Origin: a virus | Taxonomy: Duplodnaviria > Caudoviricetes | Virus record (IMG/VR): IMGVR_UViG_3300020042_005881 | Coordinates: 1 to 36,360 of that record | DNA: 36,360 nt | Direction: 5' to 3' (one strand) | In this document: piece after piece, positions 13,414 through 26,871 of the stretch | How the letters are laid out: the number at the start of each line of letters is the position of its first letter | How positions within the stretch are numbered: the stretch's first letter is position 1 | The notes under the pieces: model-generated | What the model was told of the DNA's origin: nothing | Database searches by the model: none | The model's input: only the letters and a program-made list of their open reading frames with translations | Position numbers and translations under genes: made by a program

Positions 13414-13493
13414 ACGTCGTACCCATGCCGGAGCCAGTGCTCGTGGAGTTGCTGGTAAACAGGAGTTTCTAGGCAGTAATCGTATGGGTTCAT
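13410..13493 (-). CDS. 27-aa micro-ORF (MNPYDYCLETPVYQQLHEHWLRHGYDV)
   Basis: ATGA overlap with tailspike 2 stop and with next ORF. Confidence 0.5.
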   Translation of the reverse strand: MNPYDYCLETPVYQQLHEHWLRHGYDV

Positions 13494-14938
13494 GCGCTTC
13501 TTCCGATTTCGTACCACTGCGTTCCGTTGTGTTGAAGCGTAAGAGTAGATCCTGCCACGGCAGAGAAGTTTGCACCTCCACTTAAACGCATATTTGATGC
13601 AGTGCCTGTTCCGTTAAACACTGTCAGTGATCCTGTAAAAAGAAGTGTTATTTTTCTGCCAGCCCATCCACCAGCAAGTCCACCAAATCCAGTAGTGCCA
13701 ATAACATTAAAACCATCTCCAAGATTAGGTATCGGCAAAGGATCAGCGGAAGTTACCCCAGGAGAAAGAATATTAGGACCACTTGCAAACGAAGAAGTAG
13801 CATTATCAATTGCAAAGTTGTTTGCTCCAATTTTAATATTTACAGTGGACACAGCGCCGTAAACAAAATTTGTAACAGAAGCGAGCGTGTTAAAATCAAA
13901 CTTTACAACAGATAAACTTGCAGCAACAGAAACCGCTGTTGGCGTTGTTGTTATATAGTTGTAAGCGATATCTGCGTGGCCAAGCGTTATTTCAATTGCG
14001 TTATATGTGTGACCTGCAATGAAGAAATTATGGATTGGAACAAATTGAGTAGAAACAGTATTAACAACAATTCCATTTCCACAACTGTACGAAGCAGCGG
14101 ACGAACAGTTGAATCCATTTATATTCCCTTCAAATCTCCATCCGGTAGATGTTGGATACAGTGTAGTGTTATCTGCAACGCAGTTTGTTGCGTTTGAAAT
14201 AGCGCAGTTTTTGAAGTAAAAACCGTTTAGGTAACCATAACTAAAGCAGTTAGAAAGATTCGTTCCATCTGCATTATCGTGTATGTAAAATGCGCTTCCA
14301 GAACGATGGTGCCTAACATTTGTTCCGCTTGCTGCAATAGTTGCGAAGGGCCAACACTGGATACTTTCAAGCCTAGGAACATCGTAGCAGTTGGTGATTT
14401 CAATCCCTGCCGAACAGTCGATGTTTAGATCCTTTGCTCGAAGTCTCTGGTAGCCATCTGACAGAACTGCTTTTGCGAAACCAAGGATCATGCAGCTTTT
14501 CAGAGAAGCGTCATCCCCAGCCACCGTAATGGCCGTGCCTGCAAACGCTGTGGCGTCAGCAGCAGGGAACGTCATTCCGCTCCTGTAAATAAGCACACCG
14601 TTCAGAGAAGCCCCACTGTTGAGCGTTATGGTTCTGGATGAGTTCAGAATCAAAGCACCACCCATGCTTCCGTATGGAGCAGACGAGTTGTTTCCGGGCG
14701 TGCCAGTAAATTGGTGTGGCCCTACAAGCGAAACACTGGGATTAATTGTAAGGTCGCCATCAATTAAAAACTTGCCAGCGGCTCCAAGGCTTACACTGCC
14801 ACCAGCGGCCCCTAGCGAGTCAATAGCAGCCTGAATAGCCGACGTATCATCAGTGACCCCGTCTCCCACCGCCCCAAACTGGAGCACTGAGACGATGCCG
14901 TTTAGCTTTGATGCGTTTTGAAAAGATTTGCTGCTCAT
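13490..14938 (-). CDS. Tailspike 2, pectate-lyase-like beta-helix, no head-binding domain
   Basis: VSVLQFGAVGDGVTDDTSAIQAAID cap motif at residue about 17; Asn/Cys-rich beta-helix rungs; WYEIGRS end. Confidence 0.85.
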   Translation of the reverse strand: MSSKSFQNASKLNGIVSVLQFGAVGDGVTDDTSAIQAAIDSLGAAGGSVSLGAAGKFLIDGDLTINPSVSLVGPHQFTGTPGNNSSAPYGSMGGALILNSSRTITLNSGASLNGVLIYRSGMTFPAADATAFAGTAITVAGDDASLKSCMILGFAKAVLSDGYQRLRAKDLNIDCSAGIEITNCYDVPRLESIQCWPFATIAASGTNVRHHRSGSAFYIHDNADGTNLSNCFSYGYLNGFYFKNCAISNATNCVADNTTLYPTSTGWRFEGNINGFNCSSAASYSCGNGIVVNTVSTQFVPIHNFFIAGHTYNAIEITLGHADIAYNYITTTPTAVSVAASLSVVKFDFNTLASVTNFVYGAVSTVNIKIGANNFAIDNATSSFASGPNILSPGVTSADPLPIPNLGDGFNVIGTTGFGGLAGGWAGRKITLLFTGSLTVFNGTGTASNMRLSGGANFSAVAGSTLTLQHNGTQWYEIGRSA

Positions 14939-14942
14939 AGTG

Positions 14943-17096
14943 TTAAGGAACGATGTTGATTGCTGTTCCGTTTATCCAAAGATCACCAGACACCAGCCCG
15001 ACACTGGAAGTTGGAAGGTTTGGCAAATTAAGTGTTCCGTCGTATTTTAAGGCCATCCTCTTGACCAAGGAACCATTTCGATTGACGTAAAAGTCTAGCG
15101 TAACAGCTTCATTTGCGGCAGTTGCAGACACAAGATTTGCTGCCAACTTAAAGGAATCTTGTTTGCCAGCAGCAAACAACTGCGAACCAAAAACCTCAGG
15201 GCCAACTCCACCAGCTATTGTTTGCCTGTCAAAAACTTCAAATTTCGCAGCCGTGTTCTGTACTGTAAAATTGTTATTTACAATTCGCTCTGGAATGCCA
15301 GCACTAACTGTTACTGTGTTATATGTATTTGCAATTATGGATGTTTGAAACTTTGTTGTGTCACTAGAAAACACAAAGTCTTGAATAACTCCATCTAGGA
15401 TACATCCAACAATAGAACTTGCATCTGCTCCGGCCTGAAATGATGCAGCATAAGTTCCAGAATTAAATGTGCTGCCAACACAAGTGATGTTGCCGTTTGA
15501 AACCAAGATGCATTCAGCACTGTTTGCAAACAGACATCCATTTACCCTGATTGCCGAATCACTTGCAGCACCTCCTGTCGTGTCTGCAATCAGCCCATTG
15601 ACTCCTGCAATGCTAGTACAATCAACAAGCGAGCAATAAGTGGATGTGCCGTCAATTTTGAAGCCGCAGACAGACCCAGTGTTTGGATTTGTGTAGTCAG
15701 CTTGGCAGCGGACAAAAGAAATGTTTGATGCACTGCTCGCCCAAAACCCGGTTGCGTACCCATACGCAAAACAATCAGTCAGCGTTGACCAGTCGCAATA
15801 GTTTGTCAGCTTGAACCCGTACCCAGAGCGACGATTGGGAGCTGGATTATCTGGAGTGTTCCCTACGCCGGGCACCTGTGCTGTCAAAAACGGCCAGCAG
15901 TGAACAGAGTAAATTCTGTTGATGTCAAATGATGTATCTATGCTGAACCCGTTAGTACAGTCGATCAATGTAGAGCCAACGGTCACCCTGTTTGAGTTTG
16001 TTGCCACGATTCCGTTGGTGTGACCAAGAATCATGCAAGACACAACAGAAGCGTCGTCTCCAACACCCTGTACTCCAGATCCAATCTGGACTGCTGTGCC
16101 AGAGAATGCGGCAACAACAGCTTGCGCTTGTGTGGCGTTTATAGGAACCGTTGAGTAAAGGTTCTTCCGAATAATCAACAGCCGTTCAAGTGCTGCATTT
16201 CTTTGCAGATTGATTGTAGCACCTGTGTTCAGAAGAAGCTGCGAGCCAAAGCTGTAATAGTTTTGAGTCGTGTAGTCTGCAATCCCGTGATCTATCTCGC
16301 CAAACAAACGCACATTTGGCTTAACAGTTATAGAGGAAGCGAGATAAATTCGTGCGTTGCCGGGGACTAAAACTGCTCCACCCAACGCTCCCAGAGAATC
16401 AATTGCTGCCTGTACTGCAACAGTATCATCTGTCACTCCGTCACCAATAGCCCCGAAGTCATTTACAGACACAATCTCACGAGCCTTGTCCTGCATGTTT
16501 CGCGTGACAGCGCCTGCACCGGCTTGGATGAACGAAACCTGCGATCCTGGCACTTGGTTGCCAGTGACTACTGTGCCACCTTGGAACAAGAACTGGTCAC
16601 CAGCAGCAGCCGGCGCAGTCAACGTAACAGTCGAGGAGTTCGTCTCTAGGTAGTCCAGACCAAGGTTTAGCCTGAGTCCGTTTCGAAAGACCTGCAACGT
16701 GTCAGTACCGGGCAGGTAGCTAAACACGGTCAGCGAAAACGTAGTCTGGCTCGCAGTCGCAGTAATGAGCTGCGTGGAGATGTCGAAGACTGACGTAGGC
16801 GAGTCAGACTGGTCGAACGCAGAGAAGACCAGCACACGGTTCTTGTTCCTGACAGTGATCGAGTAAGTGTCAGTCGAAGAGTAGAACCTGCTAGGCGTTC
16901 CCTGCCTGCTAGGATACCCACCAACAGTACGAACAGGCTGTGCAGCAGGAATGGTCAATGCAGCGTCCCAGAACACGTTTATAGGGGCTGTCTCTGGATT
17001 CAGGTTACTTTGTCCAATGTAGATGTAACCGCCCTCTAGCGGGGCTCCTGTCGTGTCAGTGAAGAACGGGAATGGTGATACGATGGAAGAGGACAT
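14943..17096 (-). CDS. Tailspike 1 with P22-type head-binding domain and beta-helix
   Basis: PFPFFTDTTGAPLEGGYIYIG...NPETAPINVFWD N-terminus; VSVNDFGAIGDGVTDDT cap motif. Confidence 0.9.
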   Translation of the reverse strand: MSSSIVSPFPFFTDTTGAPLEGGYIYIGQSNLNPETAPINVFWDAALTIPAAQPVRTVGGYPSRQGTPSRFYSSTDTYSITVRNKNRVLVFSAFDQSDSPTSVFDISTQLITATASQTTFSLTVFSYLPGTDTLQVFRNGLRLNLGLDYLETNSSTVTLTAPAAAGDQFLFQGGTVVTGNQVPGSQVSFIQAGAGAVTRNMQDKAREIVSVNDFGAIGDGVTDDTVAVQAAIDSLGALGGAVLVPGNARIYLASSITVKPNVRLFGEIDHGIADYTTQNYYSFGSQLLLNTGATINLQRNAALERLLIIRKNLYSTVPINATQAQAVVAAFSGTAVQIGSGVQGVGDDASVVSCMILGHTNGIVATNSNRVTVGSTLIDCTNGFSIDTSFDINRIYSVHCWPFLTAQVPGVGNTPDNPAPNRRSGYGFKLTNYCDWSTLTDCFAYGYATGFWASSASNISFVRCQADYTNPNTGSVCGFKIDGTSTYCSLVDCTSIAGVNGLIADTTGGAASDSAIRVNGCLFANSAECILVSNGNITCVGSTFNSGTYAASFQAGADASSIVGCILDGVIQDFVFSSDTTKFQTSIIANTYNTVTVSAGIPERIVNNNFTVQNTAAKFEVFDRQTIAGGVGPEVFGSQLFAAGKQDSFKLAANLVSATAANEAVTLDFYVNRNGSLVKRMALKYDGTLNLPNLPTSSVGLVSGDLWINGTAINIVP

Positions 17097-21940: not shown

Positions 21941-22780
21941 TTAGTACCCGCTAACAATCATTCCTTCTTGTCCCATTCCGGTTCCTGGGCCTTGTCCGGT
22001 GCTCGGATTGTACACGTTTCCACCGCTTCCGCCTCCAAAGCCACCACCTCCGTTATTCAAAGCATTATATAGCATGTAGTTCTGAACGCCTCCACCAATT
22101 GCGTTACTAACTCCACTGGCGCCCTGAGCATAAGCATTAGCAGCCCCTATCTGTCCAGCAGCACGAGCTTGTCCCTGACCAACCATCAAGTTACCAATGT
22201 TCTGTGCAGATTGCTGACCGGCAGCTCCAACTCCAGCCGCAGATGCTTGACCGAGGCGCAACAAGTTCTCAGCAGAGGTCGATCCAAGCTGAGTTAAGCC
22301 AGCTAGTTTGCCATACTGGGACTCAATAAGTTGGTTTAGCAATGCAGGACGAAACTGTGCAAGTGCAGCCTGCACATTCCCGCCTCGAAGCCCTCCAGTG
22401 GCAGCAGCATTCTGAAGGATGCCTTGCTCGCCCTGACGCGCCAACTCTTGGAACTGTGCCCCCTGTTGAATCTGATTGATAGCAGCCTGTTGTTCGCCAG
22501 CACCACGAAGTCCAGCAAGTCCCTGCATGGCTTGTAGCGCACCAGGTCCAGCGCCAATATATGGCTGCGTTAGGTCTACCTTTCCAGCTTCGACATATGG
22601 CCTTAACGTCTCTTGAAGTTGTTTAAACTGAGATCTTTGCTCTTCAATAGCTCGATCTTGTGCTGCGGCCTGTGTGTTTGCTGCTTCCTTTGATGCCTTC
22701 GCACCTTTACTGGCCGAACTGCTTGACACAACACCACCAATAACTGCACTTCCTATTACTGCTGCGGCAATCCATCCCAT
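21941..22780 (-). CDS. Ejection protein, P22 gp7-like
   Basis: Hydrophobic Gly/Ala N-terminus, PYVEAG, NAAATGGLRGGN, Gly/Ala/Gln-rich. Confidence 0.8.
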   Translation of the reverse strand: MGWIAAAVIGSAVIGGVVSSSSASKGAKASKEAANTQAAAQDRAIEEQRSQFKQLQETLRPYVEAGKVDLTQPYIGAGPGALQAMQGLAGLRGAGEQQAAINQIQQGAQFQELARQGEQGILQNAAATGGLRGGNVQAALAQFRPALLNQLIESQYGKLAGLTQLGSTSAENLLRLGQASAAGVGAAGQQSAQNIGNLMVGQGQARAAGQIGAANAYAQGASGVSNAIGGGVQNYMLYNALNNGGGGFGGGSGGNVYNPSTGQGPGTGMGQEGMIVSGY

Positions 22781-22781
22781 A

Positions 22782-23312
22782 TCAAAAATCCTTTCTATTT
22801 TTTAGAAAAATATCACTCCATGCCTCTAGCCTCGAGCGAATAAATAAAACTGGAACAACCTCTTTAGGTAACTTTATTGCATGAGCAACCGCAGCGGTAT
22901 AAATGCTTGGGTTTGGATATATTTTCTTTCCAAGGTTATGTAGCTCTTTTGTTTTTAAGCAAATCACAGAGTAAATTGAGGGCCAGTTTTTCTCCAGCAG
23001 CAAATCAACCTTGCTCCAAGCGGCATCTGGTTCTCCTTTTACAAAGGAATTGCCCCATCCTGGCTGCGTTCCAGTAAAAGTTTTCCCCGATAAAAGGTCA
23101 TAAGACTGAAGTAGTGGGCCATGAACTCCTCCAAGCATCATTAATGCTGCGGCCATTGCCTGAAAATAACTTCCTGAACCGGCAGCAGAGTTTGCCACAG
23201 CAATGCTTGAGGCATTGTTTCTAAAAGCACTGATCGCATGTGCAGCATGAAGCTCATTGAGAAGTTCTATCTCCTCAACTGATGCGGGTTCATCTCTCCA
23301 AAAGAAAATCAT
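22782..23312 (-). CDS. Truncated citrate-synthase-superfamily protein with altered active site
   Basis: NASS..V...AAAL..LGGVHG, PGWGN, YPNPSIY, LFIRSRLEAW are collinear with citrate synthase NAST, LxGxxHG, GFGH, PNVDFY, FaxsRxxGW. Confidence 0.75.
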   Translation of the reverse strand: MIFFWRDEPASVEEIELLNELHAAHAISAFRNNASSIAVANSAAGSGSYFQAMAAALMMLGGVHGPLLQSYDLLSGKTFTGTQPGWGNSFVKGEPDAAWSKVDLLLEKNWPSIYSVICLKTKELHNLGKKIYPNPSIYTAAVAHAIKLPKEVVPVLFIRSRLEAWSDIFLKNRKDF

Positions 23313-23800
23313 ACCGTTCCTGCGGCCTTTTTGATTAAGAATGGAACATGCTGAATGTTAAGTGCTTCCATTCTTTTTGCTTTTTGCTCGTTGAATTTCT
23401 CGCCGGGACGGCACCATTCCCAGATCTCTTTAACCCTCAACACAACCTCTGAAAAATTAATCCGAAGTGCCGGCACAATCCTAGGCAAACATTCCTCAAT
23501 GTGACAAAAAAATGGAGCACACTTTTGTCTACTAAGGGAAGACACATTGCAAAATGCCTGAATAGCTTCTTCCTTATCTCTTTCAATAACTACCCACCTT
23601 GCATCTGGATACCGAGCCTTGATTATATCATACGACATGGATGCGGTTGAATCAGAATTTCCAATCTGAACTCCAGATTCAAGTTCACGCATGAACTCGT
23701 CCAGAGATTTTCCATCTCTATCATGAGCGCAATCCAAAGCAACAGATAGCCATGCTGTCATGCTTCTAGGATACCCAGTAATAAAGAACGGCTGAGTCAT
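23309..23800 (-). CDS. Sulfotransferase-like P-loop protein
   Basis: FFITGYPRSMTAWL resembles the 5'-phosphosulfate-binding loop; YPDARWVVIERD resembles the 3'-phosphate-binding motif. Confidence 0.7.
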   Translation of the reverse strand: MTQPFFITGYPRSMTAWLSVALDCAHDRDGKSLDEFMRELESGVQIGNSDSTASMSYDIIKARYPDARWVVIERDKEEAIQAFCNVSSLSRQKCAPFFCHIEECLPRIVPALRINFSEVVLRVKEIWEWCRPGEKFNEQKAKRMEALNIQHVPFLIKKAAGTV

Positions 23801-24135
23801 TAGGTCACTTCTCTTCCAGATGCGGTAAAGGTGAGTGCTGATGCCGTCCCTGCCAGCGTAGAGATGAACCCACCAGACTCAAGCACCTGCCCAACCAGTT
23901 CAGGGCACAGGTAAGTCTCCCCAGGCACAATCGAGCGGGTCTTGACGATCAGGTTAGAGTTGCCGGCAGAACCACTAGACACGATCAGGTTGACGCTCAA
24001 CGTCACATTGACAGTGTTCGTGTTCGTCACAGTCGCCTTGTCAATAATGGTCTTGCAGTTGACAGCGGTGTACTGCGCAGTCTGAGTGTTCTCAAGCTGC
24101 TTAGGAGGAACGATGTTTTTGACTGTAACAGCCAT
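23800..24135 (-). CDS. Putative virion protein, 111 aa, beta-rich
   Basis: Thr/Val-rich sequence in tail module; TAATG-coupled downstream. Confidence 0.7.
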   Translation of the reverse strand: MAVTVKNIVPPKQLENTQTAQYTAVNCKTIIDKATVTNTNTVNVTLSVNLIVSSGSAGNSNLIVKTRSIVPGETYLCPELVGQVLESGGFISTLAGTASALTFTASGREVT

Positions 24136-24137
24136 AA

Positions 24138-24923
24138 TTAAGAGATGTTGTCTGTGACTGTAAGAATTAACGAAGGAAGAGCAGGAACTGGTGCGCTGGC
24201 CGGCAGTGCTAATATCTCACAACTCGTGTCATCTGTGCTCCAAACCAACTCGAAGTAATCTCCTGCGTTAATTGGTAGAACAAAGTTCCAAGCAGCAGCC
24301 GTCTCTGCATTGTTGCCTTGAATACGCATCTTAGTTGCGCTGTCTGGAATGTCAACGCCGTTGACTCTAGCCCAAATATAAATAGCGCCAACTCCACCAG
24401 CCGTTTTGTGAAGCTGTGCTGAAAACTGAAAGTTATAAATGCCTTCCGTGTCAACGTAAACACGACTATTGGGAGTGCCGGTGTACACGCCAAAAGAAAG
24501 GGCAGTCGTATTCAGCGTCATCGGATACGCCGTGTTGATGACAGCAGCGTTCTGAGTTTGCGTGTCATAAAACGCTCCGTAGCGTTTTCTGCGCACTTCA
24601 GGTGTGGCCGGTGGCAAAATGTCTGCCTGTGCAGTGAACTGCACAAATGGAGGAGAAATGTCTACGTTCTGATTTTCTGGCGACCTCACAGGAGCCAACG
24701 CAAGCAACTCTACTGCGTCAGCCAACCTCACGATAGCCGAGACGGCCTCCTGAGCCCTAGAATCGGCATTCTGTGCGTTTATCGAGGCTTCCTCAATTAG
24801 CGTCGTGTTTGAGTCCAGACTAGAAGGGATCAGGTCGAATAATTGTTCAAAAGCCCGGATCGCACGTTGCGACGGGAGGAACTGGGCCAGTTCGTTTCGC
24901 GTGATCTTAAATGGTCCGGTCAT
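24138..24923 (-). CDS. Tail needle-like protein with C-terminal TNF/C1q-like knob
   Basis: Follows gp10-like gene; helical N-terminus then GIYNFQFSAQL...AGDYFELVW beta domain. Confidence 0.6.
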   Translation of the reverse strand: MTGPFKITRNELAQFLPSQRAIRAFEQLFDLIPSSLDSNTTLIEEASINAQNADSRAQEAVSAIVRLADAVELLALAPVRSPENQNVDISPPFVQFTAQADILPPATPEVRRKRYGAFYDTQTQNAAVINTAYPMTLNTTALSFGVYTGTPNSRVYVDTEGIYNFQFSAQLHKTAGGVGAIYIWARVNGVDIPDSATKMRIQGNNAETAAAWNFVLPINAGDYFELVWSTDDTSCEILALPASAPVPALPSLILTVTDNIS

Positions 24924-26323
24924 ACTGCAAGCGGTTCAACTCTGGCTTCAAGTCTAGCCACAGAAAGCTGGGCGTCGCTGGTGCCACGGAACTTCTGCGC
25001 TCTCCACTGGCGCATACGACCCTGCCGGAGCCATGACAACCGTTTGCCGCGCACGCCGGTCATGCCGGCCTTGCAGACTCGTTCCTGTCCCCAAGTTAAA
25101 CCGTCCTCGGTGTACGATGTCCAGATGCTGGGATCAGCGCCAAAGATTGAGTTGCCGGTGAGGGCGATAAGTTCCAGCTCATGGAAGACGAGGCCCCTGC
25201 TTTCGTTGTACAGAATGATGGTGGCGAACTCCCAGCCATTCAACACACCCCAGTGTGACGATAAAGACTCAGACAGGTAGCCAAACGCAGTGCTTGCCGG
25301 GTCTCCCACGTTCCAGCGGTTATAGGTCCAAACCAAGTTGCGAGCGCGATACTGGGCGTCCCCTACGATGCTAGTTGCCAGCGTAAACCAGACCGGGGCG
25401 CCGGCACCAGTAGTCGCAGCCGCGTCAAACACGAGCGTCTGATTGGGCAGATGGATATACAGTTGTCTATAGCCCTTATCTACGCGGGCCTCAACAAGCA
25501 CGTTAGACAACTCTTCCTCTGTAAATTCAGTAAGCAGTTGGTCAATCTCCCTGGTTGCAATCCGTTCTGCGTTGCTGCCGGAGATCAGCCAAACTGAAGG
25601 TGCCTCGTTCCGGCCGCCACCAATGAACGCGATGGACTCCATGAACACGCAGCAGGCATGAGTGCCGATTGCACCGCGCTGGACCTGGGCACCTTCTACG
25701 CGCTGAAACGGAAACAACTGCCCACCCACGTTGTCAAACACTTCGATAGTGTTCCTGTTGAGCGCATAGACCTCGTTGCGGACCTTCAGGAGGGCCACGA
25801 TAGGGTCAGGATCAGCTTCAGATGAACCGTACTTGAGCGGATTCACTGAGAACGGATCATTCAGTTCCGTGACGATCAAGAACTCTCCGTCAGTCGTCAT
25901 GAAGTAGCCATCCACCCAGACGACATCGACGACAGTGCCTAGATCAGGATCAGTGACCTGTTGCAGCCCTGTGCTTGGACGATAGAGGAACAGGTTTCCG
26001 CTCGATGCGATTGCCAAGTAATCGAACGAGTAATCAAACGTAACCTGTCCCGTGCCACCCACATTGCCTATGACAGTGACGACGTTAGTACTAGAGATTG
26101 ACACCAGATTAGTGCCCATCACGCGGTACAGCAGTCCTTGCCACTCAATCCCACCGCGGTTGATCCCGGGACCAGTGCCTAGGCTTACGATTCCATCAGC
26201 GGGACGGAAGTAGCCATCAGAGATCCCTGACTTGAGTATGACAGGAACCATGTTGCGCGGGTATTCCACGCGGAAATCCCCAGCGGTGCTCGTGTAAATA
26301 CCGTTGAGGATAGGGACTTGCAT
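24920..26323 (-). CDS. Tail hub / packaged DNA stabilization protein, P22 gp10-like
   Basis: 467 aa; YPRNMVPV, DGYF, SEADPDPIV, TIEVF motifs; synteny. Confidence 0.85.
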   Translation of the reverse strand: MQVPILNGIYTSTAGDFRVEYPRNMVPVILKSGISDGYFRPADGIVSLGTGPGINRGGIEWQGLLYRVMGTNLVSISSTNVVTVIGNVGGTGQVTFDYSFDYLAIASSGNLFLYRPSTGLQQVTDPDLGTVVDVVWVDGYFMTTDGEFLIVTELNDPFSVNPLKYGSSEADPDPIVALLKVRNEVYALNRNTIEVFDNVGGQLFPFQRVEGAQVQRGAIGTHACCVFMESIAFIGGGRNEAPSVWLISGSNAERIATREIDQLLTEFTEEELSNVLVEARVDKGYRQLYIHLPNQTLVFDAAATTGAGAPVWFTLATSIVGDAQYRARNLVWTYNRWNVGDPASTAFGYLSESLSSHWGVLNGWEFATIILYNESRGLVFHELELIALTGNSIFGADPSIWTSYTEDGLTWGQERVCKAGMTGVRGKRLSWLRQGRMRQWRAQKFRGTSDAQLSVARLEARVEPLAV

Positions 26324-26469
26324 TACTTCTTCTTGGCAGTCTTCGCAGAAGCCTTAAATGCGGCAGCGGTTGGTGCCCCCTTAGAACCCGGCTTGCGCAT
26401 CTTCTCCTTGCTGCCGGCTTCGATACGTTCGCGTTTAGCTGCGATGTTAGAATAGAGTCCGTCTTTCAT
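26323..26469 (-). CDS. 48-aa basic protein (MKDGLYSNIAAKRERIEAGSKEKMRKPGSKGAPTAAAFKASAKTAKKK)
   Basis: Read manually; ATGA and TAATG overlaps. Confidence 0.75.
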   Translation of the reverse strand: MKDGLYSNIAAKRERIEAGSKEKMRKPGSKGAPTAAAFKASAKTAKKK

Positions 26470-26738
26470 TTGCAGTTCCAGCGTTTAAGTGAAGCAGCCT
26501 TGCGAGTAGGATTGCCCTTCTCGTCCTTCATTGGACCGGGCATCCCGCCCATACGAGCACAGAAAGACTTCTTGCGCCCTTCGTCTGCCTTGGTCTTTGG
26601 ACTTGGAGCAGGAGCCTTGAGATTGCTCCCGGTGGCCGCATTGTACTTGGCCCTGCCCTTTGCTGTAAGCCCGGCCCCTTTGGAGACAGGTAGCTTCTCG
26701 CCGCGGCCAACGGATAGGGAGGTGGATTTACGAGGCAT
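26466..26738 (-). CDS. 90-aa basic protein (GLTAKGRAKY...RKKSFCARM...LKRWNC)
   Basis: ATG at 26738; motif pattern I recognise from small environmental-phage proteins. Confidence 0.75.
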   Translation of the reverse strand: MPRKSTSLSVGRGEKLPVSKGAGLTAKGRAKYNAATGSNLKAPAPSPKTKADEGRKKSFCARMGGMPGPMKDEKGNPTRKAASLKRWNCK

Positions 26739-26871
26739 CTTCAGACAAGTCTCTTTGAAGTTCTTGGATCTCGCAGCCAGCATGGCGCTCGTTGCGATAT
26801 GCCTCTGCCTCTGCTTGGTCTAAAAACTCAACCCAACCAAATTGGTGAACAATGCGGTAAATTGTAGTCAT
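26728..26871 (-). CDS. 47-aa acidic protein (MTTIYRIVHQFGWVEFLDQAEAEAYRNERHAGCEIQELQRDLSEDAS)
   Basis: Read manually; starts 3 nt after upstream stop and overlaps next start. Confidence 0.6.
   Translation of the reverse strand: MTTIYRIVHQFGWVEFLDQAEAEAYRNERHAGCEIQELQRDLSEDAS

Follow-up and report, generated by a model that had tools for sequence, protein, structure and literature searches.

A sulfotransferase-like and citrate-synthase-like gene pair in front of a podovirus ejection gene: a candidate system for modifying the N-terminus of the ejection protein

We describe two adjoining genes of a P22-like podovirus, encoding a minimal sulfotransferase-fold protein (ST) and a minimal protein with the citryl-CoA-lyase/citrate-synthase fold (CSL), which may jointly modify the N-terminus of the gp7-like ejection protein encoded directly behind them: CSL would N-acylate Gly2 of this protein, and ST would add a sulfate. 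We assign this scheme as a whole a probability of about 45%. Across related phages, the type of enzyme in this slot goes along with the first residues of the ejection protein, a pattern which points to the N-terminal amine of that protein as the target of the genes in the T7 gp13/P22 gp14 slot.

The gene pair and its two folds

The window, that is, the whole stretch of DNA analysed, is a viral record of 36,360 nt with a CheckV completeness of 97%. Its minus strand carries a P22-like virion block with terminase, portal, scaffold, coat, gp4 and gp10 (Pfam, PHROG), and the phage is a P22-like podovirus. Downstream of the P22 gp10-like head-closure/tail gene (24920..26323; Pfam Phage_stabilise, E=3e-43), which we used as a marker of the phage backbone, follow on the same strand a gene of 261 aa, a conserved gene of 111 aa (23800..24135), ST (23309..23800; 163 aa), CSL (22782..23312; 176 aa) and the ejection gene (21941..22780; 279 aa). 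The last matches PHROG 598 (DNA ejection, E=8.7e-35) as well as Pfam T7_gp14 and P22_gp7, the P22_gp7 match (E=3.9e-6, 27.3 bits) lying slightly below the cut-off of 28, and its product starts MGWIAAAVIG, i.e., with Met-Gly followed by a hydrophobic Ala/Gly-rich segment. The tight coupling noted in the initial annotation is indeed present: the TAA of the 111-aa gene overlaps the ATG of ST (TAATG at 23800), an ATGA overlap joins ST and CSL (23312-23309), and a single base (22781) separates the CSL stop codon from the ATG of the ejection gene (22780). The pair had also been described as more AT-rich than its flanks. This is correct for overall GC content (42.5% for ST and 42.0% for CSL, versus 51.5% in the window as a whole, 52.4% in the gene upstream and 52.1% in gp7), but the low third-position GC of the pair (0.34-0.37) continues into gp7 (0.38) and the later ejection and tailspike genes, and the pair is thus not alone in having it. 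No signal for an internal promoter or terminator exceeded chance, and no tRNAs were found.

The two folds named in the initial annotation are supported by Pfam, profile and structural comparisons; both models cover their fold across nearly the whole length, and neither protein has a GNAT family match in Pfam or PHROG. ST matches Pfam Sulfotransfer_3 (E=4.4e-7, 30.8 bits, cut-off 27), and its AF2 model has a pLDDT of 91. A profile of the ST family (36 sequences) searched against the PDB retrieves human TPST1 first (E=1.2e-4) and then mostly other sulfotransferases, and the ten best Foldseek matches are all tyrosylprotein sulfotransferases, while in VIA the fit to TPST2 (Z 10.9) ties with that to P-loop kinases (Z 10.8). 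The protein contains (i) a 5'-PSB-like motif, G9-x-P11-R12-S13-x-T15-x-W17, (ii) an invariant H26, (iii) the motif G47-x-S49-D50, and (iv) a 3'-PB-like R74. When aligned with TPST, PRS-x-T corresponds to PRSGT, His26 to the first Glu of CGEE, and R74 with the position eight residues further on to RDGRASVHS. Within the ST family P11, R12 and T15 are found in 36/36 sequences and S13 in 33/36; the position of the PSB-loop Gly deviates in 33/36 (Arg in 23, Met in 10), and the Arg and Ser of the 3'-PB are present in 29/36 and 32/36, respectively, the copy in the window having R74 but Ala82 at R+8. Supply of PAPS by the phage is unsupported, APS kinase being encoded in only 1 of 34 ST-carrying records. 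Among 50,697 GenBank phages ST has a single weak match, in Pseudomonas phage Epa43, where it does not seem to belong to the virion genes.

CSL matches Pfam Citrate_synt just above the cut-off (E=1.7e-6, 27.7 bits, cut-off 27). Its AF2 model (pLDDT 92) superimposes on citryl-CoA lyase 6hxp from H. thermophilus over 174 residues (VIA Z 17.0, rmsd 2.6 Å); the top 11 VIA rows all belong to the citrate-synthase/citryl-CoA-lyase family, with ATP-citrate lyases and citrate synthases following 6hxp, and the Foldseek matches have the same fold. A profile search of 1.84 billion representatives yielded 221 clusters at E<=1e-30, and 462 with the limit relaxed to E<=1e-10. Most of the 150 relatives listed are ~185 aa long, and in the ESM Atlas the closest clusters, where their source is known, are viral to 96-100%. 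Exact peptide patterns, an insensitive tool, matched no CSL relative in GTDB genome contigs, and a pattern scan of 50,697 GenBank phages (INPHARED) found none either, hence no cultured phage with CSL.

Comparison with E. coli GltA and PrpC (hhalign; GltA numbered from Met1), in combination with column counts in a 150-sequence family alignment, indicates how far CSL departs from citrate synthase. Three GltA residues are kept: the catalytic His H265 (CSL H64), N233 (N33) and R388 (R161). Replaced in the window CSL are the catalytic Asp D363 (S136), as well as H306 (N88) and R315 (A98). The columns concerned are Ser 77, Ala 49, Gly 22 for D363; Asn 89, Ser 40, Gly 8 for H306; and Leu 41, Ile 30, Ala 18 for R315 (n=150 each). 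Of the oxaloacetate-binding set (H230, H306, R315, R388) only R388 is thus retained, with R161 in 149/150 sequences, whereas H230 aligns near F30/R31 of CSL. Near-invariant columns are H25 (145/150), R31 (146), S35 (149), H64 (149), N134 (150), T139 (146), R161 (149) and W165 (148), and in the CoA loop G85 and G87 are found in 150/150 sequences, with Lys or Arg at position 92 in 125/150 and at 129 in 129/150. In sum, CSL keeps H25, N33, H64, G85-W-G87, K92, D96, K129, N134 and R161, and gains R31, T139 and W165. Since the changes in the active site are common to a whole family that has invariant residues of its own, CSL is not decayed, and the label 'degenerate' given to it earlier has to be dropped. 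CSL is therefore not a citrate synthase, be it intact or in decay, but a member of a conserved family whose active site has been rewritten; judged by its sequence, it plausibly still binds a CoA thioester. We considered Ser136 as an acyl-enzyme nucleophile and rejected it: the column varies between Ser, Ala and Gly, and the D363 equivalent offers no conserved nucleophile.

Pairing, slot exchange and the second residue of the ejection protein

We collected 71 CSL loci, including the window, of which 50 are distinct. At 41/50 ST adjoins CSL or lies no more than 1.1 kb away, and at 37 of the 50 it belongs to the same ST clade, with ST first in 20, CSL first in 15, and both fused in 2 (363-364 aa); at one of the 20 ST-first loci the gp7-like gene sits between ST and CSL. 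A second ST clade adjoins CSL at 4/50 loci, and in the remainder ST lies elsewhere in the genome (1 locus), the contig ends within less than 200 nt (7), or no ST is visible (1). Longer fusions (385-2000 aa) were not found at E<=1e-15, which is weak evidence. When the sample is anchored on ST instead (best 80 of 305 viral loci, 65 distinct), CSL is present at only 7/65. The suggested co-occurrence of the pair therefore holds in one direction: CSL is rarely without ST, while ST is often without CSL. Five CSL loci lie outside virion genes (L016, L054, L055, L065, L070), as do some copies of ST.

Other partners of ST are a GNAT, AspH (Asp/Asn beta-hydroxylase, PF05118) and a helical domain. The ST-GNAT fusion shares size, position and Gly2 partner with the ST-CSL fusion; the evidence that the fused domain is a GNAT is weak (Pfam E no better than 0.006, PHROG 1249 E 0.002, PDB E 0.05). 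This GNAT was found in 0/16 CSL records in a search without positive control, as expected if GNAT and CSL replace each other. Exclusion of GNATs by the pair is incomplete, as one locus (L023) has a GNAT adjoining both CSL and ST. Two loci (L012, L030) contain an ORF of 121 aa whose resemblance to a GNAT was judged by eye and is not borne out by GNAT profiles.

The second residue of the next gene was surveyed at 111 distinct loci, a fixed rule being used to call the start of the next hydrophobic-tipped gene. At CSL loci it is Gly in 30/30 readable cases (no call at 9, cut at 13), so that the association with ejection genes anticipated in the initial annotation is supported in the form of a Gly-started gp7-like neighbour. 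Gly is likewise found at the ST-GNAT fusion loci (8/8 readable, 2 cut). Loci with ST alone have Ala 12, Pro 10 and Gly 2 (24 readable, 9 without call, 1 cut), those with ST and AspH have Pro in 9/9 readable cases (no call at 2), and the ST-helical fusions have Ser 3 and Ala 1. Contrasting CSL (Gly 30/30) with the other ST loci (2/37) gives a Fisher p=5e-17, uncorrected for kinship. Beside this constant Gly2, residue 3 takes 8 different amino acids over the 30 CSL loci, and gp7 length ranges from 221 to 456 aa. Among the nine CSL loci without a call, two show an ATC codon and then Gly downstream of what resembles a ribosome site, in two more a leader or an alternative start precedes a tip that contains Gly, one carries an inserted ORF before it ends, and four lie outside virion genes. 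In a complete genome of 78.6 kb (G001), CSL lies ~17 kb from ST, and the gene after ST begins MG. The two exceptional ST-alone loci with Gly are followed by genes closely resembling that of G001; their records are 38% and 84% complete, with no CSL visible. A search for CSL in 50 records matched only in the positive control, and among records at least 90% complete that have ST without adjacent CSL, a copy elsewhere was found in 0/14.

In order to compare slot contents independently of the module, relatives were gathered by their gp10 alone, as the 80 loci that best match that of the window (56-94% identity); they include 39 distinct loci with a readable gp7 start, of which those of L181 and L189 were set by hand. 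As had been proposed, the pair stands where close relatives have their usual acyltransferase: exactly the same slot holds GNATs (PHROG 1249, PHROG 651, DUF2824) or other enzymes. The start of gp7 varies with them. It is Met-Ala where GNATs of types a and b (PHROG 1249 type) are present (8/8), Met-Ser with the gp14-like GNAT (2/2) and with a cupin mostly fused to a SET domain (10/10), Met-[AP][DN]P with a DDxxD helical protein (PHROG 21390; 17/17), Met-Val with AspH plus GNAT (1 locus) and Met-Gly with ST plus CSL (1 locus), Gly2 being found in 0/38 of these loci without CSL. For the DDxxD helical protein, Pfam and PDB gave no match and the atlas none that is confident; that it may be prenyltransferase-like is suggested by the motif as seen by eye. 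Its nearest named atlas clusters include prenyl-synthase subunits (0.78-0.79), which is a lead only.

At the DNA level, homology between the window and all 15 of the other-enzyme relatives tested stops at 23795-23810, i.e., at the start of ST and the stop codon of the 111-aa gene, which forms the upstream border of the exchangeable cassette, and resumes at 22718-22435, 20-115 codons into gp7. With the two ST+CSL relatives tested it is unbroken. The exchanged block hence comprises the enzymes and the first 20 or more codons of gp7. On a gp10 tree of 47 rows (fragments <330 aa excluded; L006 and L008 added), at least 18 changes of slot type are required. The independent pairs of this tree agree in 7/7 cases for the helical protein (p=0.016), 7/7 for GNAT a/b (p=0.016), 5.3/6 for the cupin (p=0.06) and 4/4 for CSL and Gly (p=0.125, underpowered); the same test on the ST tree has one supported pair only and is uninformative. 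Tree-corrected support for the slot code thus extends to two members, the helical protein and GNAT a/b, and the link between CSL and Gly falls short of significance once kinship is corrected for. Because the enzymes and the first codons of gp7 move together, the clade-level result alone does not tell function and linkage apart. In favour of function are the deep conservation of Gly2 next to a free residue 3 and the unlinked arrangement in G001.

Proposed mechanism and competing readings

Gly, Ala, Ser, Pro and Val at residue 2 are all substrates of methionine aminopeptidase, and these are the residue-2 types observed. We propose that the pair is an exchangeable cassette in the T7 gp13/P22 gp14 slot which acts during assembly as follows: (i) host methionine aminopeptidase would remove Met and expose Gly2 of the gp7-like protein; (ii) CSL, in place of a GNAT, would acylate the Gly2 amine from an acyl-CoA, His64 acting as base on the thioester while Arg31/Arg161 bind an acyl group that is anionic or polar; and (iii) ST would place sulfate from host PAPS on a hydroxyl of the cap or beside it. 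Step (ii) would be the counterpart, on Gly2, of the acyl transfer from a CoA thioester that the GNAT fused to ST presumably carries out, and step (iii) would parallel the variant in which ST and AspH precede a Pro-started gp7. The modified, hydrophobic tip might then load into the capsid or insert in the outer membrane; alternatively, the cap could shield the tip from host peptidases or sensors. T7 gp14, the equivalent of gp7, forms the outer-membrane pore and, by the published description, is the first protein to be ejected (PMC8954989). A capped tip could therefore make a difference to loading, to insertion or to recognition by the host.

The steps of this scheme differ in strength. That Gly2 of gp7 is the target is, in our view, quite probable. 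If it is, the odds are about even that the acyl transfer falls to CSL, the thioester being placed at His64 and the acyl group at Arg31/Arg161; no enzyme of the citrate-synthase fold is known to us to act as a protein acyltransferase. Somewhat better than even are the chances that ST is a true PAPS-dependent sulfotransferase working in the same pathway as CSL.

Other chemistry might act on the same target. CSL could build or hold a donor, i.e., a condensed or sulfated acyl-CoA, from which the ST-fold protein would carry out the transfer with PAP as leaving group; the CoA-derived phosphopantetheinyl group would be one example, and activation by sulfate followed by N-alkylation another. ST being the constant partner of CSL, GNAT, AspH and helical domain would fit this assignment, as would the extra Arg in the PSB loop of 23/36 ST sequences and the anion site formed in CSL by Arg31, Arg161, His25 and His64 in the absence of a conserved nucleophile. 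We nevertheless regard it as unlikely, since ST stands alone before an Ala- or Pro-started gp7 in 22/24 readable loci, where no CSL-made donor is needed, and since the combination of ST, AspH and Pro fits plain hydroxylation followed by sulfation, as proposed for bacterial tail-collar operons (PMC2938197).

Gly2 could also be a mere passenger on the recombining block, the pair modifying a tail protein, a host surface polymer or a small molecule. Such linkage would agree with the joint swapping of the enzymes and the first codons of gp7, with the loss of significance of the CSL-Gly link after tree correction, and with the copies of CSL and ST outside the virion block. It would not lead one to expect that Gly2 persists in 30/30 cases, whichever of the two gene orders and of the two ST clades is present and despite the variation of residue 3 and of gp7 length, nor that it is kept with CSL ~17 kb distant, nor that every other slot enzyme has an N-terminal signature of its own; taken together, these observations render linkage a rather improbable account of the pattern.

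CSL might, instead, be a non-catalytic adaptor, a dead fold whose part would be to bind the peptide with the starting Gly and to serve gp7 as a chaperone on its way into the procapsid. The loss of the catalytic Asp, the His and the Arg of citrate synthase is what one would expect of such a protein, and T7 IVP-A is described as a morphogenesis factor that is not retained (PMC4819975). However, the near-invariant polar residues (H25, R31, H64, T139, R161) gather around the former active site, CSL has preserved the CoA loop, and GNAT, SET and AspH, which take the slot in its place, are enzyme folds, which makes this role doubtful indeed. Finally, that CSL is an auxiliary metabolic gene, i.e., a working citrate synthase or citryl-CoA lyase redirecting host carbon flux, can practically be dismissed, as the initial annotation had done: in its favour are a Pfam match barely above the cut-off and the name 'citrate synthase' given by JGI to several relatives; against it, the D363, H306 and R315 columns being lost across the family and the gene being translationally coupled in a virion operon and tied to ST and Gly2.

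Significance and relation to known systems

If Gly2 acylation followed by sulfation is correct, the long-unexplained slot gene represented by T7 gp13 and P22 gp14 gains a testable job, and the citrate-synthase fold gains a new activity as protein N-acyltransferase for Gly. More generally, and tentatively, the podovirus slot may be viewed as a swappable enzyme cassette (acyl, methyl, prenyl, hydroxyl, sulfate) that sets a code at the N-terminus of the protein injected first, each version being matched to the first residues of gp7 and passed between nearly identical phages, probably under pressure from the host, with the citrate-synthase fold turned into a Gly N-acyltransferase that builds an acyl-sulfate cap together with a miniature sulfotransferase. 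The frequent exchange of cassettes between phages with 86-94% gp10 identity suggests host selection on the modification of a membrane-penetrating tip. In addition, automatic 'citrate synthase' labels on such genes, which could be miscounted as auxiliary metabolic genes, can be corrected. A search of openly available full texts revealed no description of a phage sulfotransferase and citrate-synthase pair or of an N-terminal modification of ejection proteins.

The closest known counterpart is T7 gp13 (IVP-A)/P22 gp14, which is described as a non-structural assembly factor of the acetyltransferase family, in a section that names no substrate, and which some phages replace in the IVP-A slot by another family (PMC4819975). 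Like these genes, our pair sits between the tail-tube/gp10 genes and the IVP-B/gp7 gene; unlike them, it comprises two enzymes of unrelated, non-GNAT folds, and that section draws no link to the first residue of the ejection protein (PMC4819975). The pair likely works like IVP-A without being a member of that family, as it has no GNAT fold. Bacterial operons that combine a beta-hydroxylase with a sulfotransferase, for which hydroxylation and then sulfation of tail-collar or collagen-like proteins has been predicted, resemble the slot variant with ST and AspH in the hydroxylate-then-sulfate logic on a co-encoded protein; they are, however, bacterial and not concerned with podovirus ejection proteins, and no citrate-synthase fold is mentioned in the passages on them (PMC2938197).

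At the level of folds, the CSL core is like that of citryl-CoA lyase 6hxp, the CCL module of ATP-citrate lyase, and citrate and 2-methylcitrate synthases (PF00285), with which it has in common the catalytic His, the GxG loop, the Asn and one Arg. Unlike these enzymes, CSL is viral, only ~185 aa long, devoid of the Asp, the second His and the second Arg, and endowed with new invariant Arg31, Thr139 and Trp165. ST resembles TPST1/2, bacterial Sulfotransfer_3 proteins and PHROG 10855 in the 5'-PSB motif and, with its family more than in the copy of the window, in the 3'-PB motif, and its best sequence and Foldseek matches are found here; it is about half the size and has His in place of the TPST Glu, Ser in place of Lys, and Arg or Met in place of the loop Gly. 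For the proposed modification itself, a parallel is found in eukaryotic viruses, the N-terminal glycine of whose entry proteins is myristoylated by host NMT, a GNAT-fold enzyme. As in that case, an acyl cap would be placed on Gly2 of a membrane-penetrating virion protein; unlike NMT, however, the enzymes considered here are encoded by the phage itself and adopt another fold.

Other occupants of the slot in close relatives

In close relatives collected by gp10, the slot between the tail genes and the gp7-like ejection gene holds other proteins. One is a helical protein of ~150 aa with a DDxxD motif (PHROG 21390; loci L161:3436-3885, L170:7027-7476 and L208:6782-7243), for which the motif, judged by eye, suggests a putative prenyltransferase. 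Where it occupies the slot alone, the gp7-like protein starts with Met-[AP][DN]P (17/17 distinct loci), and protein and start agree in all seven independent pairs on the gp10 tree. The same protein is also found fused to the mini-sulfotransferase-fold protein, ST (L080, L090, L095, L127). In other relatives the slot holds a cupin-SET fusion or lone cupin (L175:4104-4955, L186:3995-4846, L201:7573-8436, L223:6994-7815); the gp7 downstream of every such gene starts with Met-Ser (10/10), and the PHROG label of tail fibre/adhesin on the cupin part is probably wrong. One clade additionally conserves a 133-aa ORF between a 111-aa gene and the slot enzyme (L208:6315-6716 and relatives).

Additions and irregularities at CSL loci

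Two loci encoding ST and the citrate-synthase-fold protein, CSL, carry an extra 121-aa ORF (L012:8522-8890, L030:6120-6485), GNAT-like by eye and without a profile match. In both, gp7 starts with MGCG, and they alone have Cys3 among the 30 CSL loci with a readable gp7 start. An APS-kinase-like gene occurs in one of 34 records searched, an ST+CSL phage (L239; G061:5904-6173). At L008:4598-5128 a single stop codon breaks the CSL frame, reflecting either an assembly error or a pseudogene. CSL lies away from the virion block in L016 (record G001), L054, L055, L065 and L070; in G001, ST precedes an MG-started gene ~17 kb from CSL. Apparent ATC starts followed by Gly, preceded by GGAG-type ribosome sites, were seen in gp7-like genes of L041 (near 5570), L052 (near 5576) and L045 (near 4271).

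Further genes of the window

Downstream of the ejection genes, third-position GC is low in a tandem pair of tailspike genes (13490-17096, minus strand), whose pectate-lyase-like products are 717 aa and 482 aa long. Upstream of gp10 lies a lysine-rich DUF6321 ORF (26466-26783, minus strand), adjoined by a small basic ORF (26323-26469).

ST with partners other than CSL

In nine loci, ST is followed by a separate Asp/Asn beta-hydroxylase gene (PF05118; L098, L109, L116, L117, L120, L128, L132, L145, L153), and gp7 starts with Met-Pro in all nine. Downstream of an ST-GNAT fusion of ~355 aa (about 3990-5070 in L111, L114, L118, L121, L123, L138, L144 and L152), gp7 is Met-Gly in 8/8, and this fusion is apparently the counterpart of ST+CSL.
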